A program made the translations under genes and the position numbers. Shown one piece after another: positions 15,952-24,969 of a DNA stretch of 64,000 bases (within the stretch, counting starts at the first letter, position 1; each line of letters opens with the position of its first letter). Source of the stretch: Sarea resinae (taxonomy: Eukaryota); the NCBI GenBank assembly GCA_026026165.1, contig JAPEUD010000011.1, positions 248,001 to 312,000 on the forward strand. The letters run 5' to 3'. The notes under the pieces are model-generated. The model made no database searches. It saw only the letters and a program-made list of their open reading frames with translations, and was not told where the DNA came from.

Positions 15952-16073
<122 letters not shown>

Positions 16074-17167: not shown

Positions 17168-18603
17168 TCAATGATTCCTCGCAACGACCTCCCTCGCAAA
17201 CCCCGCGAAATCCAACCCGCGGTCCACATCGACCAGATCGGCCAGATTCGGCTGCGTGAACACGGCGATGGTATTCCGGGCGATTTTCCTGGCCCCAGAG
17301 TCTCGGTCCCCCGAGTCCCGCGGCCCCTTGACAAAGTGCGGGACGGCGCGAAACTTGCCGCGCGTGATGCGCTCGAGGGCCTCGCCCGTCTGGAAGCCGA
17401 GGCTGTCGCGCGGGATGGAGACTTTGACGACGGCGGAGGAGCGCGAGTGGATGTAGAGGCCTGAGGACGGGGAGGGGGAGGTGGGGAGTTCGGGGAGCGT
17501 GGGGAGCGTGGTGCCATGGGAAGGGAGAGGGAGGGAGGGCGGGTGGGCGGTCTCGTCGATGAAAAAGGCTGATGTTAGGCCTGTCAGGCAGCCGTGGTCG
17601 AGATGCGTGGCACACCAATCGTCATCGTCGTCGTTGGCGTCCTTTTTGTCTCCCTTTTCTTTCCCTTCTCCACTACTTGCCGGGGGGAAGTAATGCAGTA
17701 GCCTCGCCTTGGTCGTCAGACTGCCCTTGACCACGCCTTCGAGGAACCCGGCCCCGTCGGGCCCGCGCGCCTGCGGATACCCGTCTACCTTTTCACGCGC
17801 GTACCGGTCGCAGGCCCGCGCCACCAGCACCGCCGTGTCGATGATCAGCGTGACGAGCGCTTGGAAGGTGGTGCGGAAGCCGGGGAGGAGGCTGTCGGCG
17901 GGCCAGATGTTCGGGGCCGTGTATTCGGGGAAGTCGCCTAGCGATGACGGGGTGGAGCTTGGTGGAGCCGTGCTGGGGCTGGTGTAGGCCGGGGCAGAGG
18001 AGAGAGAGGCGTCTTTGTAAAAGGCGCAGTTGACGTAGTAGGACCCCTTGTGCGTGTCGTAGACGCCCGACTTGAGCGTCTCGCGCCCGTGCGACCAGCC
18101 CACGAGCCATTTCGCCTCGGGGCATTCGAGCTTGGCTGTGCGGCGAGTGTCAGCTGTGAACGAGTAGTGAAGGTAGACGAAAGAGGGCCAGAGAAGACTG
18201 GAGACGAGATGATGATGCAGGAGTACCCACCCAGTTCCTCGGCCGGTAGGTTCGCCAGATACGACGCATAACTCAGTAGTTTGGCGCGCAATTCCGCGAA
18301 TTGAGAGGGCAGGTCGCTGACGAGGAGGATGCCGAGCGAGGATGGCCCAAAGGCAGCTTCGAGGGTTGAGAAGGGGACTGTGCCTGCTGGTCGTCAGTAG
18401 GCGTTCATTACTGAGGTCCACATAGATGATCTTCATAGGGGCGCGTAGGATCAGGGGTGGAAGTCGTTGCGCCGGATCGCGGCGACCGGGCGGGGTTTAG
18501 GTCAGTGCAGTCGAGGCTTACCTGCGCGCAGATCTTCGAGCGAGACTGAGATGGCCTCTGCCTTGGTGGCCGATGTGGTGGTGACGCCATTGGAGGGAGC
18601 CAT
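17168..18603 (-). CDS. 2-oxoglutarate/Fe(II)-dependent oxygenase (IPNS/DIOX_N-like)
   Basis: Exons 18603-18522, 18383-18231 and 18135-17168. AFGPSSLGILLVSDLP, VGWSHGRETL, KGSYYVN, APNIWP, KARLLHYFP; Fe ligands WCATHLDHG (HxD) and AVPHFV; 2OG-binding RNT. Confidence 0.9.
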
Positions 18604-19019
18604 TGTGTCCGCCCTTCAGCGATTAATCGATGAAAGCGGGAGTGGGATAACGGAGGTGGAGAAATCGCGGGGCAGTCCGCCCTTTATCATGGATGGAAGC
18701 GGGGAGTCTGGCGTGTTTTGTTTTCTGCCGGACAGGACGCTCTAGGCGTTCGGGCATGGCCGCTCAGCTTCTGTGACAGGCATAGTTCGGAGCCCACCGC
18801 CTTGGCTTGCGGCGGTGGTGGCGGGGGAAGAGCTTCATTTCAACTCCAGTCGAGCGTTTTCTATCAGCCGCCCACGATCGACAAATCAATCATAAGCTGA
18901 GGCGATTCAGGGCGATGTATGTGCATCCTCAGGCCTCGGCGACAGTGGGCGCGCTTTGTGATCCTGATGGCCTGTGTCGTGTCGATGGTTCAATTGCAAC
19001 CGTCGCGGCCTTTGTATTG

Positions 19020-22000
19020 AATCGCCCACGGCCGGTAAATATTGAGTCTCGTTTGAATAATAAAGCCCCAATATTAGCGGATTTCCGCGACTCTCGGCGG
19101 CGTTCAGCGATTGTTTGCGACCCTGGTGGGCTGATGATGCTGTCGACGCTGGCGATGGCGGGATGGGGATGGTTGGTCTTTGTAATTCATGGCTCTGCTT
19201 CCCCATATTCCGCCCGCCACGACTCAATCGCCCGTGGTCGCTCGGGGCTGTAAATACAGACTCAAATTAAAGACATCTAGGCCATTAATATGCGACCCTC
19301 GGCGCCCCCGCGCGACCAGCAGCGATCAAACGCGTTGGTACTCCGTAGACGGTCCTGGAATGGTCTTGGTCGCTCATGACCGCCACTCAATCGCCCAGCG
19401 CCCATCGCCACAACTCCGACGCTCACAACCACCCCTGGTCGCTCAGCGCTGTCAATACAGAATTAGATCGTGTACATTCAGAGGAATCATTTGCGCCCCT
19501 CGGCACCCTCCCGCGACCAGCAGCGAGTCCGAGCGTCCTGGTGGTCGTGGTGATGCTAGGGGGTGCTAGCGAGTCGGGCGGGCAAAGGGGTAACTTATGA
19601 GATGGGCACGATGGCCACAACCCCCACGGCCACAGCCACCAACGGTCGCCCAAGGCTATAAATGTAGATTTGGATGAGGCGTATTCAGAGGAATCATCTG
19701 CGTCCTCGGCGGCCCCCCGCGCCCAGCAATTGTTGAGAGCGTGCAGTAGTTCTCGGGATCTAGCCGATTGAGGGGCGGCGATCTATGAATTACCGCCGGA
19801 TTTCGCTACCTCGTGTTGAATGACGACGCTCGCGTTCAACTCACGGTGAAATTCTTTCAAACTTGAAACTTGAAGTCGCGTCATATTTTCCTACAATGGA
19901 TTCAAATCTCAAAAGATTTCAGCGGTGGGTGGTTGGTCGCGGCCAGCGTCATTGTCGGAGTCCAATCCTGGTACATGGTCCACGGGCAATTAGACGTATC
20001 ATTCAAAGTACCACCTCTGATTTCTCTGCCCTTCTGTGATAATCATCCACGCTTTCGACCCCCAACGGTCCAAATGGGCCAAAATCAACGCCACAGGGTC
20101 GCGGGATGTAGATATGCTAGCCGCGTCGGTTTGAAGAGATTTGACCGGTTCTTTGGTCAACGCGTTCGTGCTTGGCGTTTTCGAGTCACAGTCAGATACT
20201 AGGGGGCTAGCGAATCTGGCCGTCTTTACTATCCACCGCGCCACGTCAACGCCCACGCCTGGAATCGCCCACGGTCACTTTAAGCTATAATTATAGATCT
20301 GGATTAGCTAGATTCAGGCGATTCATTCGCGACCACAGGCGCCTCCCCGCGACCAGCAGCGAGCGCACGCGTCCTGGTGATTGTGCTGCCCGCGGTGAAA
20401 CAAGGGGCCTAGCGGGCAGCAGGCTGGTAGGGTCCCTACAACTCAACGCGTGCAATATTCGCCGGTCACCCAGGGTTATAGATCTCGCATTCGATTAGAC
20501 ATATTCAGGGGAGTAGTTGGCGTCCTTGGCGGCCTCCCGCGCCCAGCAGCGAGCGCGCGCGTCCTGGTGGCCGCGGTGATTAGAGGGGCCTGGCGGGCAG
20601 GCTGGTAGGATCACCACAACTCAACGCCCTTTTCCGTCCATGGTCGCCCTGGGGTAAGGTTCTCGATCTGGATCAGGTAGATCTAGAGGAATCATTTGCC
20701 ACTATAGGCGGCCTTCCGCGACCAACAGCGACTGTACGCGTCCTGGTGGTAGTGGCGGTTTTAGGGGTCCTAGCGAGTCTGGGAATGGCCTTGATAACTC
20801 ATAGATCGCCGCTCAACGCCCGCAACCGCCCACCGTCAGAGAGGCTTTATATTATAGACTTGGATCATCTATATGCAGAGGAATCATTTGCGACCATCTG
20901 CGCCCCCCCGCGACCAACAGCTATTGAACGCGTCCTAGTGACTGTAGTACCTACCGTGACTCTAGGGGGCTAGCGAGTCTGGATTATGAGTTCCCACAAC
21001 TTTACGCGTGCAACGGCCCACGGTCGCCGAGGCTTGATATTATAGATCTGGATTATGCATATTTAGACCATCAATTTGCGCCTACCAGCGTTCCCCCGCG
21101 ACCAGCAGCGAGCGCACGCGGGGTGGTAATTGCAGTGACCGCGGTGAAAGGGGCTAGCGAATCTGGGAGTGGTCTTGGTGGTTGACTTATGAGATCCCAC
21201 AACTCAACGCGTGCAACGGCCCACGGTCGGAGAGGCTTGATTTTATAGATCTGGATTAGGTATACTTAGGGGAACTATCTGCGTCCTCGGCGGCCTCTCG
21301 CGCGCGGCCGCGAGCACACGCGTGGGTGGTTAGTGATCCTAGAGGGTCTGTGTTTATACTATCTCACAACGCCGCTTCAACGCCCGCACCCGCCCACGGT
21401 CAGTTTGGGCTATCATTGTAGATCTGGATCAGTTATATCTAGGGCAATCACCTGCGTGCTTGGCAGCCTCCCGCGACTAGCAGCGAGCGCACGCGTGGGT
21501 GGTTAGTGATACTCGGGGGCTTGCGAACTTGGCAGGCTTTATACCATCTCACAACGCCGCTTCGACGCCTGCACCCGCCCACGGTCAGTTTGGGCTATAA
21601 TTGTAGATCTGGATCAGTTATATCCAGGGCAATTACCTGCGTCCTTGGCAGCCTCCCACGACTAGCAGCGATCGGACGCGTTGGTGGTTAGTGATATTTC
21701 TCACAACGCCCCTTCAGCGCCTGGAGTCGCCCACGCCTGAGCTCGCTCACCGTTGCTTTGGGCTATAATTACAGCTATGGATTAGGTGGATTCAGAGGAT
21801 TCATTTGCCCCTATCAGCGTCCTCCTGCGACCAGTAGCGAGCGCACGCGTGGGTGTTTAGTGATTCTTAGGGAGGCTGGCGTCTCGGTAGGCGTTTATAC
21901 TATCTCACAGCGCCCCTTTGACGCCTGGAATCGCCCACGCCTGAGCTCGCCCACCGTTGCTTTGGGCTGTAATTCTAGACTTGGATCAATTATATTCAGG

Positions 22001-22470
22001 GCAATCACCCGCGTTCTTGGCAGCCTCCCGCGACCGGCAGCGAGCGCACGCGTGGGTGTATGGTGATGCCTCAGGGGGCTCGCGAGCGAGTCTGGCGGTC
22101 TCGGTAGGTGTTTATTATCTCGCAACGCCACCTCCACGCCCGCAACGGCCCACCGTTATTTTGGGCTACAATTCTAGGTGTGGATTAAACAGATGCAGAG
22201 CTATCATTTGCGACCCTCGGCGCGCCCCCGCGAGCAGCAGCGAGCGCACGCGTGGTGACGGTGGTAGTCCTGGCGAATCTAGGCGTTTATACTATCGCAA
22301 CGCCCTTCAGCGCCTGGAATCGCCCACGCGTGGACTCGCCCACGGTCAGTTTGGGCTATAATTACAGCTATGGATTAAACAGATGCAGAGCTGTCATTTG
22401 CGACCCTCGGCGCGCCCCCGCGAGCAGCAGCGAGCGCACGCGTGGCGACTGTGGTAGCCCTGGTGATCGT
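19020..22470. repeat. Degenerate head-to-tail array of ~15 units of ~170-205 bp, interrupted at ~19735-20190
   Basis: Core CCGCGACCAGCAGCGAGCGCACGCGT (with variants) at ~19311, 19511, 19717, 20347, 20537, 20716, 20908, 21096, 21298, 21471, 21656, 21825, 22028, 22228 and 22418, preceded by CGCCCACGGTC...GGGCTATAATT...AGATCTGGAT...ATCATTTGCG-like blocks. Confidence 0.93.
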
Positions 22471-22605
22471 CTGGGCTAAAGGTCCATCTGGTGAACTGCC
22501 GAATCTACTTGAGACAAAGCACAGACCACCACCACCGCCATCACCATCATCATCGAGTCTGCCGCGGCTACCAGCTCTGACTGCATCAACAGAAACAAAA
22601 TCAAC

Positions 22606-23478
22606 ATGGTCAAGCCCTTGACCTTCAAGGGCGACAAGCCGGCCAAGAAGCGCAAACGCGCGGCGGCCTCGACCTACGGCGACGGCCACGACGATAACCA
22701 TCACGACGACGACCGCCCCTCCAAAGCCTCGAAAGAAACCACCGCCCTCATATCAACCTCGCAACACAAAACCACAGACACGACCGCCGACGACGACAGC
22801 TGGGTGTCCGCCGACACGCCGACCGACATCACCGGCCCGATCATCCTCGTTCTACCGACTACGCCCCCGACCGCCCTGGCCTCGGACGCCAACGGCTCCA
22901 TCTTCGCCAGCGCGCTCGAGAACATCATCGACGGCGACCCGGCGACGGCGGAACCGCACGACGTGCGGCAGGTGTGGCGCGTGGCCGCGATCGCCGGCAC
23001 CGAGGGCCGCAGTCTCAAGGGCCACCACGGCCGCTACCTGGGCAGCGACAAGTTCGGGATCCTGAGCGCGACGCGCGAGGCCGTGTCGGCCGAAGAGTCG
23101 TTTGGCTTCATTCCGGCGCCGGGCCAGCCGGGGCTTTTTGGTATTCAGACGGCGCGGGAGACATTCTTGACCGTGTCCGGCGGCTCGGGCGATGGTGCCA
23201 AGGCGGCGGCGGAGTTGCGCGGCGATGCGGAGACGATCTCGTTCACGAGCGCGGTGCGTGTGCGCATGCAGGCGCGGTTCAAGCCGCGGCTGAAGGCGTC
23301 GCGGGAGGAGAAGGCGCGCGAGAAGATCTCGCGCAAGGAGCTCGAGGAGGTCGTCGGCCGGCGGCTGAGTGACGAGGAGGTGCGACGGCTCAAGAGGGCG
23401 AGGCGCGAGGGCGACTATCACGAGGTTATTCTTGATGTGCGGGTCAAGGGGAAGCATGATAAATTCGCCTCTTCGTGA
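22606..23478 (+). CDS. FRG1: FRG1-like protein (fascin-like fold, spliceosome-associated)
   Basis: Intronless 290 aa: MVKPLTFKGDKPAKKRKR, DDSWVSAD...DITGPIILVLP, AEPHDVRQVW, KGHHGRYLGSDKFGILSA, LRGDAETISF, RMQARFKP, LKRARREGDYHEVILDVRVKGKHDKFA. Confidence 0.93.
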   Translation: MVKPLTFKGDKPAKKRKRAAASTYGDGHDDNHHDDDRPSKASKETTALISTSQHKTTDTTADDDSWVSADTPTDITGPIILVLPTTPPTALASDANGSIFASALENIIDGDPATAEPHDVRQVWRVAAIAGTEGRSLKGHHGRYLGSDKFGILSATREAVSAEESFGFIPAPGQPGLFGIQTARETFLTVSGGSGDGAKAAAELRGDAETISFTSAVRVRMQARFKPRLKASREEKAREKISRKELEEVVGRRLSDEEVRRLKRARREGDYHEVILDVRVKGKHDKFASS

Positions 23479-24832
23479 TTGTCCTGTCGTCTTTCGTCCT
23501 ATCGTCTTTCGTCCTGTTGTCGCTTTCGTCTTTTCGTCTCACTGTCTGGCATATCCTCTCATCTCCTTCCGTCTCGCGCCACACTGTCTGCAACATATCC
23601 TCTTCTCTTCTCTCCTCTCAGCTGTGCGCTATTCTCTCGTCCCCTCACGCTCTCGCGCCTCTTTCATACACAGCTTCAATGGCAGTCTAGCTAAGAGAAC
23701 TACAATCACCAATTCAAACCCCTGATCTCCTCCCCCTCCCCCTTCCCTCCCCTCCCCTCCCTCCTCTCCTCTTTTATCTCCCCTCCTCCTCCTCCACTAT
23801 CATCCTTCTCTCGCCCTACTTTCTTACACTTCTCTCTCACACACACCCCCTCAACACGAATCTACCTTACATCAGCTAGAAGAAGAAGTAACCAGCAGAA
23901 CCACAATCACAATCACCAATTCAAAGACAGCTAGATCCTTAAACCTGCTTCTTAGACCTACTCCTTAGATCTCACGAGATACCGGACCTGCCGGACCCAC
24001 TAGACCGGTCTGTGTATCGTGTATTATATATTGTGTGTAGTGTGTAGTGCGTGTTGTATGTTGTATGTTATATATTGTGCTAGTCTGTGGCGCTGGCATT
24101 AACTACAGACGTCTTGTTGCTTGTATCGCCCCTTATTTTTATTCCCTCTTGAATGGATCTCGTCTCTGATTTTATTACTCCTATCACTCTTCTCACTCTT
24201 ATTGCCTCTGATTGAATCTCTGATTTGATCTCCCCTGATTCAATCTCCTCTGCTTTAAATCTCTAATTCTATCTCCCCTGATTCAATCGCCCCTGGTCTT
24301 GTCACATCTAATCTCGCCGCCCTGATTTCGTCTCTAGACCACTGATCTCATCTCCCTCGCCTCGCCTCTAATCCAATTGCCTTTATTACTGATTATCACT
24401 CCCCTGTCCCCCTTGTCAGTCAAAAAAAAAAGGCAGGCTATGGTTAAACTATTCAACTAATCAACAAATCCCTTGACCTACTGATTCTATTATCGACAAA
24501 AAGGGAACAGAAAAGGAAAAGGAAAAGGAAAAGGAAAAGGAAAAGGAAAAGGAGGTATCTATTAGGAGATTCGACTGACGCCCATCTAGCTACGCCCATC
24601 TAGCTACGCCTGCTACATTTATCTTTATCTCTATCTCTATTACTAGCACTATAAACTAGCGCTTACAGCTCTCTCCTTTCGATAAAACTAATCATTACAA
24701 GGAGTAGTAGATCTTTGTCGGTTACGATTTGAGATCTCTTATCTAGCCTAGGTCTTATTTATATAGAGAAAGAAAGGATATTAGGTCATCTATTACGCTG
24801 TAGATCTCTATTTAGCCTGTTTGGAAAAAGAA

Positions 24833-24840
<8 letters not shown>

Positions 24841-24863
<23 letters not shown>

Positions 24864-24969
24864 AGAAGAAGAAGAAGAAGAAGAAGAAGAAGAAGAAGAA
24901 GAAGAAGAAGAAGAAGAAGAAGAAGAAGAAGAAGAAGAAGAAGAAGAAGAAGAAGAAGAAGAAGAAGAA
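24841..24969. repeat. (GAA)~43 perfect trinucleotide microsatellite; (GGAAAA)n nearby at ~24510-24553
   Basis: Directly visible. Confidence 0.98.

Follow-up and report, generated by a model that had tools for sequence, protein, structure and literature searches.

A 64,000-nt stretch of the Sarea resinae genome (assembly GCA_026026165.1, contig JAPEUD010000011.1, positions 248,001 to 312,000 of the forward strand; hereafter the window, whose own coordinates are used throughout) contains a tandem array of diverged, ~190-nt non-coding units, which lies between a 2-oxoglutarate (2OG) oxygenase gene and FRG1. The right border of the intergenic region is the FRG1 coding sequence (22606–23478, plus strand), a single frame of 290 amino acids (aa) whose identity is supported by Pfam PF06229 (E = 6e-47) and by 1357 homologues. 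The left border is exon 1 of the clavaminate-synthase-like 2OG oxygenase (18522–18603, minus strand), which was read from the sequence and starts at the ATG at 18603; the gene has at least one intron, of the GT...AG type, at ~18394–18521. Exon 2 of the oxygenase aligns to residues 38–89 of PDB 9hdl, and its downstream part matches PDB 9hdl/9hdm (‘clavaminate synthase-like protein’) over ~290 residues with an E-value of 1.6e-106. Both neighbours are thus those named by an earlier sequence-only reading of this DNA. The oxygenase read-through frames (17168–18603, minus strand) match no Pfam family at E≤0.01 in spite of the strong structural match, which suggests that Pfam models this family poorly. 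The two start codons, on the minus and the plus strand, define a divergent gene pair and are 4002 nt apart. The best non-self homologues of FRG1 are only 58–71% identical and come from lichen-forming and other Pezizomycotina (Hypocenomyce, Lasallia, Xylona, Neurospora and others), which places the sequence in a Pezizomycotina lineage without close relatives in a set of 5.8 billion clustered proteins. Two long, pure microsatellites flank the gene pair in the intergenic DNA, one on each side: a GA/TC-type dinucleotide repeat of 57.5 copies (15955–16069) and (GAA)49 (24824–24969). Short CT/GA-type repeats abound throughout the DNA between 15.6 and 25 kb.

An nhmmer profile of the unit detects 15 strong copies, all on the plus strand, with E-values from 9e-49 to 1e-32. 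The copies are located at 19121–19742 (three units) and 20183–22443 (twelve units), and they are arranged head to tail and contiguously except for one gap of 440 nt. The profile finds no further copy on either strand of the window, where the next-best match has an E-value of 0.04. A fuzzy search for the 26-nt core of the unit recovers 14 copies, all on the plus strand, from 19310 to 22443, and none outside the array or on the other strand of the window. When a degenerate core at 19717 is included, consecutive cores are spaced by 201, 206, 630, 190, 179, 192, 188, 202, 173, 185, 169, 203, 200 and 190 nt, which reproduces the spacings given in the sequence-only reading. The ordered blocks that it described in each unit do exist, but most copies are degenerate: exact matches inside the array number five for CGCCCACGG, four for TATAATT, five for AGATCTGGAT, three for ATCATTTGCG and one for the full 26-mer, of which twelve copies are found when up to four mismatches are permitted. 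A direct-repeat search returns eight overlapping families with spacings of 173–207 nt. Tandem Repeats Finder detects the youngest part only (21246–21696; period 185, 83–93% matches), since the other units are too diverged, and it reports no other long-period array in the window.

The 15 recognisable units and the 440-nt gap together account for 3.3 kb of the 4002-nt intergenic region, or ~3.6 kb if relics and a truncated last unit are included. At the oxygenase side, three old units (u01, 19120–19335; u02, 19336–19536; u03, 19537–19742; plus strand) match the profile with E-values of 7e-34, 1e-32 and 5e-38 and share 53–65% identity with the other units. Left of them lies a strongly decayed relic with several indels (u00, 19019–19110, plus strand), which covers profile positions 80–170. 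A leftmost unit had been placed at about 19020, and the relic agrees with this position, but its match is weak (E = 0.23 in a search of the window, against 0.003 in a search restricted to the flanks). A third candidate relic, at ~18865–18934, is not significant in the latter search. The interruption (19743–20182, GC 0.50) contains a weak relic at 20035–20084 (E = 0.004 in a restricted nhmmer search) and no recognisable gene or element, and a Pfam search with its 111-aa frame gave no match; it represents either a pair of heavily decayed units or the insertion of unrelated sequence. An ACGCGT site is located at 20160 within it. The twelve contiguous units u04–u15 (20183–22443, plus strand) have periods of 169–203 nt, a Tandem Repeats Finder period of 185 and E-values from 9e-49 to 2e-36, and u10–u15 (21324–22443), which are nearest to FRG1, are the most alike (69–91% identity). 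Beyond 22443 the profile has no match in a restricted flank search; in a MAFFT alignment, 22444–22475 (plus strand) falls in line with the beginnings of the u15 and u05 spacers, which identifies it as the first part of the spacer of a final unit (u16) that is cut short. After 22475 the array is over and the unique FRG1 leader follows. The distance to the FRG1 ATG is 162 nt from the end of the last core and ~130 nt from the end of the truncated spacer, close to the ~140 nt claimed before, so that the tandem copies lie directly upstream of a gene. At the other side, the array edge is 518 nt from the oxygenase ATG, or ~260–420 nt counting the relics.

Each unit consists of a length-fixed module and a spacer of variable length. 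The module, whose borders were chosen after the alignment was seen, is 119 or 120 nt long in all 15 units. Offsets that are independent of the alignment also recur: xGGTy precedes the core end by 100–101 nt in every one of the 15 units, GGAT by 71–72 nt in all twelve units that have a GGAT, and ACG by 118–119 nt in 13 of 15. The module is composed of block A (25–26 nt, GC 0.70, ...ACGCC...CGCCCACGGTC), an AT-rich block of exactly 49 nt (GC 0.38) with a TATA-like element and TGGAT, and a CpG-rich core (44–45 nt, GC 0.73, ...GGCG..CC.CCCGCGACCAGCAGCGAGCGCACGCGT) that ends in ACGCGT; all three parts are seen in the module of the last unit, u15 (22324–22443, plus strand). The spacer (49–97 nt, GC 0.57) holds nearly all of the length variation, through indels, and contains short sub-repeats, which include a 16-nt duplication in u04, u12, u13 and u15. 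The GC content of the array is 0.57, and along 20183–22443 it shows an autocorrelation peak at a lag of 190 nt (r = 0.52). ACGCGT, the core of the yeast MluI cell-cycle box, closes the core in 11 of the 15 units, and 16 of the 21 ACGCGT sites in the window lie inside the array; the enrichment of this and other motifs results from the common descent of the units.

Five of the 15 units have TATAAT or TATAAA at the homologous position, and the possibility that the array is an amplified core promoter, with each unit a promoter, was rejected on this ground. A second element, TTTATAC(T/C)ATCTCACAACGCC, occurs in the spacers of the young subfamily u10–u15 only (21362–21398, 21547–21583, 21699–21735, 21903–21939 and 22118–22154). 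Its minus-strand reading includes a canonical TATAAA, so that this and the TATA-like element of the plus strand stand back to back, ~60 nt apart; in AT-rich sequence, the occurrence may be due to chance.

The units differ widely in age. Pairwise identities range from 53 to 91%, with means of ~75% in u10–u15, ~65% in u04–u09 and ~59% in u01–u03, and beyond the decayed units only barely detectable relics are found, further left and in the gap. It follows from this gradient and from the relics that the blocks are not kept in every copy. Individual units are also mosaic. Block A of u13 differs from that of u12 at 1 of 33 sites, while the AT-rich block and core of u13 are closest to those of u10 and u11 (7–8 of 42 and 4 of 44 differences). 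Similarly, the u15 core is identical to the u14 core (0 of 45 differences), while the u15 block A is closest to those of u11 and u04. Nearest relatives therefore change from block to block, and the 16-nt duplication is shared by four non-adjacent units. Judged from the sequences, such mosaic units are the signature that unequal exchange or conversion is expected to leave in tandem arrays, and the pattern points to turnover mainly close to FRG1 and to decay on the oxygenase side.

Repeat-induced point mutation (RIP) acts on tandem duplications in Neurospora and other Pezizomycotina. The array resembles RIP-mutated duplications in being repeated DNA in a Pezizomycotina genome, where RIP is expected on duplicates, but it differs from them in having no RIP signature. 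The TpA/ApT index is 0.82 and the (CpA+TpG)/(ApC+GpT) index 1.16 (the usual RIP thresholds are 0.89 and 1.03, respectively), transitions and transversions number 188 and 148, and C>T changes are spread over CpA (18), CpC (13), CpG (14) and CpT (9) rather than concentrated at CpA. A reading as a RIP-mutated duplication was rejected.

A coding repeat was likewise rejected, given that the best of the six frames has stops in 7 of the 15 units and that unit lengths are not multiples of three. The earlier statement that the array has no long open reading frame holds in the sense that no frame is kept across units, but stop-to-stop frames of up to 138 aa do occur. The 138-aa read-through frame (21945–22358), searched against 1.84 billion protein representatives, has one match (P0121, E = 2.5e-4), which is a cadherin/FN3 repeat protein and hence a chance match; the search is a weak one, because the query frame is itself absent from that protein library.

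The anatomy of the units, their lack of coding or RNA signals, their mosaic make-up and their graded decay are established; how the array expanded and that it lacks a selected function are what we infer. It is probably, though by no means certainly, a lineage-specific, single-locus, non-coding minisatellite or low-copy satellite with a ~190-nt unit, which evolves by unequal exchange. Units that run head to tail on one strand, and that constitute the sole copy of this sequence and the sole long-period array within the window, are consistent with such an origin. The array would have arisen by repeated unequal exchange or replication slippage in the shared upstream region of the divergent gene pair, and would have grown to fill ~3.4–3.6 kb of the 4.0-kb intergenic region. 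It would evolve by birth and death, with turnover and homogenisation at the FRG1-proximal end, segments swapped among units by recombination or conversion, and older units at the oxygenase side decaying until they can no longer be recognised. Any effects on the two neighbouring genes would be by-products rather than selected functions: the promoters of the oxygenase and FRG1 would have been pushed ~4 kb apart, the motifs of the founder unit (ACGCGT and the CGCG-rich core, CGCCCACGG and TGGAT) would have been multiplied, and a 190-nt alternation of AT- and GC-rich DNA would have been imposed on the region. Minisatellite arrays of 0.5–30 kb in fungal euchromatin are described in the accessible part of PMC8122249.

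Several features of the module weigh against a purely neutral array. In 143 well-aligned columns, the HKY+G4 model is better than HKY by 25.5 log-likelihood units (alpha 1.5, tree length 3.5), so that the decay is non-uniform; uniform neutral decay, combined with a lack of transcription, chromatin phasing and deletion effect, is what the sequence-only reading had named as evidence against its proposal. The site rates are clustered spatially (lag-1 autocorrelation 0.19, p = 0.009), and the slowest runs of sites, CCCGCGACCAGCAGCGA and ACGCGT, are located in the CpG-rich core. The module has accumulated 293 parsimony substitutions and only two 1-nt gap columns, in contrast to a spacer that varies from 49 to 97 nt. 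A core with six CpG sites persists in repeated sequence free of a RIP signature, all units are oriented like FRG1, and the best-kept ones adjoin the FRG1 start. These features would also be expected of a selected binding platform, and the comparison of the units suggests that constraint is partly present.

Other observations argue against strong constraint. An alpha of 1.5 represents mild to moderate rate variation among sites; in the youngest pair of units the module (9 of 119 differences) and the spacer (7 of 54) are substituted to a similar degree; the old units and relics are devoid of the blocks; and most units are devoid of an intact TATA-like element. The scarcity of indels is ambiguous as well. 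The module has at most five 1-nt indel events to 293 substitutions, whereas the indel to substitution ratio is ~1:30 in yeast mutation-accumulation lines and low ratios are normal in fungi. The observed ratio is low against a range of 1:8–1:20, but not clearly low against ~1:30, and it is not used here as proof of selection, all the more since the module borders are post hoc; pairwise gap counts, which were obtained with a low gap penalty, are left aside as well.

These data bear most directly on the possibility that the array is an amplified cis-regulatory module, in which the 120-nt module would be a composite binding site (ACGCGT/CGCG core, CGCCCACGG and TGGAT) whose multiplication in tandem would increase or tune the transcription of FRG1 and/or the oxygenase. 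The alternation of 49 nt of AT-rich and ~140 nt of GC-rich DNA may, in addition, phase nucleosomes. The fixed length of the module with its constant xGGTy and GGAT offsets, the slow sites clustered in the core, the recurrence of ACGCGT at the core end, the 190-nt GC periodicity and the orientation and preservation of the units next to FRG1 all favour such a module, and a precedent is provided by a 126-bp enhancer in five tandem copies in the Penicillium digitatum CYP51 promoter, as far as the accessible part of PMC11122302 describes it. On the other hand, the loss of blocks from old units and relics, the mild alpha, the similar substitution density of module and spacer in the youngest pair and the rarity of an intact TATA-like element count against it. 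The motif enrichment is a trivial outcome of common descent, and the few indels may reflect a low fungal indel to substitution ratio combined with a slippage-prone spacer. Moreover, nucleosome repeat lengths in filamentous fungi are ~155–175 nt, which is shorter than the 190-nt unit. We regard a cis-regulatory array as a serious but doubtful alternative. The corresponding proposal of the sequence-only reading, a regulatory or nucleosome-phasing module, is left half standing: the non-uniform decay, the fixed module and the GC period agree with it, but the lost blocks, the sparse TATA-like element and a hairpin that shows no covariation do not.

A more specific form of this idea, drawn by analogy, appears to us rather unlikely. 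It holds that the module is a selected protein-docking unit, in which the CpG-rich core with its ACGCGT and CGCG sites, CGCCCACGG and TGGAT would be kept at constant distances, and that the ~15-fold array would serve as a copy-number-tunable upstream activating and chromatin-phasing element for the divergent FRG1/oxygenase pair of a sparsely sampled ascomycete lineage, the RNA polymerase II (Pol II) counterpart of the enhancers in rDNA spacers. The array would then have been spared RIP and methylation decay because it is bound.

Derivation from a transposable element (TE), as an internal tandem repeat of a mobile element, or membership of a dispersed satellite family is improbable. Satellites often arise from TE-internal repeats in plants, according to the accessible part of PMC7004042. 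Here, in contrast, no further copy is found on either strand of the window, and the array directly abuts the leaders of host genes, with no TE frames, TE termini or terminal repeats flanking it. A metagenome scan with the 18-nt core returned at least 120 loci with a single match each, but the unit profile aligns to them over the seeded 20–45 nt only; in this low-power search the core matches are, among the matches listed, chance hits in unrelated contigs.

A multi-copy non-coding RNA (ncRNA) or small-RNA locus, in which the unit or the whole array would be transcribed into a functional RNA, is very improbable, even though the fixed length of the 120-nt module and the AT-rich, TATA-like element upstream of the GC-rich core in some units are features that such a locus could have. 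An Rfam gathering scan of the whole window gave no match, and an E-value scan of 18500–23000 gave a single one, to mir-9460, with an E-value of 8.9 and 16.6 bits against a gathering score of 85. ARAGORN predicts no tRNA gene. The RNAalifold consensus folds of the ~190-nt unit reach only –6.3 kcal/mol on the plus strand and –5.8 kcal/mol on the minus strand, and of the pairs predicted, 0 of 10 and 3 of 15, respectively, show compensatory changes. A structured ncRNA gene array was rejected on the basis of the missing Rfam family, the weak folds and the essential lack of covariation, and the multi-copy ncRNA locus put forward as one option in the sequence-only reading is thus not supported. C/D-box snoRNA and Pol III A-box readings were considered by eye only and dropped, as the motifs are not common to the units, and no T-run terminator was seen when the sequence was read, only TTTAT.

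The hairpin that had been assigned to each unit fares no better. The arms of its best candidate stem, a 6-bp inverted repeat (CTGGAT/ATTCAG), pair with each other in 87.8% of cells, which is equalled in 439 of 500 column shuffles, and an alternative stem pairs in 64% of cells. DNA folding of the AT-rich blocks from six of the 15 units gave z-scores of –2.7 or lower for two of them and between –0.67 and +0.65 for four; the latter include the unit in which the hairpin had been thought clearest (20646–20694), with a z-score of –0.23. The inverted repeat is inherited rather than covarying, and the hairpin was discarded as a defining feature of the unit.

An origin of the array in faulty assembly, including the collapse or expansion of a repeat, is scarcely credible. 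Tandem repeats are prone to misassembly, and the Logan graph is broken from 22233 to 22433, where the u14 and u15 cores are identical, but the units are 53–91% alike and each is thus individually unique. Moreover, a separately assembled 3956-nt Logan contig from a public run, probably of the source sample and so not independent, matches 18278–22233 with 0 differences and 0 gaps and with no joints or indels, so that the array cannot be put down to a single assembler. Among the three public runs listed, this is the only one to contain the locus, and no RNA run with the locus is listed; its depth figures (340.6 for the array contig, 314.9 and 391.4 for the flanks) are per-contig values that do not represent copy number. 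At the loose ends of the Logan contigs (22431–22900), four short contigs carry sequence similar to transposase-library adapters; adapter remnants survive in those contigs, which bears on read-level artefacts at ~22.4–22.9 kb and not on the array.

Among known systems, the array is closest to the euchromatic minisatellites and low-copy satellites, with which it shares head-to-tail non-coding units, a length of a few kb, a euchromatic position, an apparently species-specific occurrence, mosaic units attributable to unequal exchange or conversion and decayed edge units. Unlike the minisatellites of PMC8122249, which have ~15-nt units in the accessible part of that source, the unit here is ~190 nt long. 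The array is further set apart by its ~15 copies at one locus, by old units that have not been homogenised, and by the combination of a fixed module with an indel-prone spacer.

The tandem promoter enhancers of filamentous fungi are similar in that a unit of ~100–200 nt is multiplied directly upstream of an ascomycete gene, as in TR34/TR46 of the Aspergillus fumigatus cyp51A promoter and, in the accessible part of PMC11122302, the five 126-bp copies of the Penicillium digitatum CYP51A promoter. By analogy, they offer a possible mechanism in which more binding sites would lead to more transcription. However, the known enhancers are young, near-identical and present in 2–5 copies, and they raise expression experimentally under fungicide selection. 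The present array, in contrast, has 15 old and diverged units, no sequence similarity to those enhancers and no known selective agent, and it is known from sequence alone.

The intergenic spacers of rDNA contain subrepeats that act as spacer promoters and enhancer repeats in Xenopus, Drosophila and plants. The likeness lies in subrepeats of 60–300 nt and variable length that fill a spacer directly upstream of a promoter in one orientation. However, the array lies between single-copy Pol II genes, the oxygenase and FRG1, in a window where the Rfam gathering scan finds no rRNA gene, and rDNA spacer subrepeats were therefore rejected as an identification; nor is there a sign that the unit duplicates a gene core promoter. 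Unstable tandem repeats in yeast promoters, reportedly treated by Vinces et al. in 2009, share the promoter location and could act via nucleosome occupancy and spacing. Those repeats are mostly short, AT-rich and rapidly changing in copy number, whereas the unit described here is 190 nt long, 57% GC and old.

Human FRG1 is named for the facioscapulohumeral muscular dystrophy (FSHD) region and lies near the D4Z4 macrosatellite. The presence of a tandem array beside a fungal FRG1 is almost certainly a coincidence, as the two arrays have no sequence or structural link.

A broad literature search found no report of 190-nt promoter arrays in ascomycetes, although such a search cannot show that none has been described. 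The sequence-only reading ranked the array as the best candidate in the window for an undescribed system. This is an overstatement, because both euchromatic fungal arrays and tandem promoter enhancers are already in print, as the accessible parts of PMC8122249 and PMC11122302 indicate.

No phenotype is attached to the array, and its present value is thus modest. If it were a binding platform, it would provide a natural copy-number series in which the relation of upstream elements and a 190-nt AT/GC alternation to transcription and nucleosome phasing could be followed in two divergent genes. The importance of tandem repeats in fungal promoters is already established, one example being the promoters involved in fungicide resistance. 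A neutral array, as a local minisatellite would be, offers a clean small example of how such DNA expands at one end and recombines and decays at the other in a gene-dense fungal region, and it would indicate that a Pezizomycotina genome can retain a repeat whose units reach 91% identity and yet bear no RIP signature.

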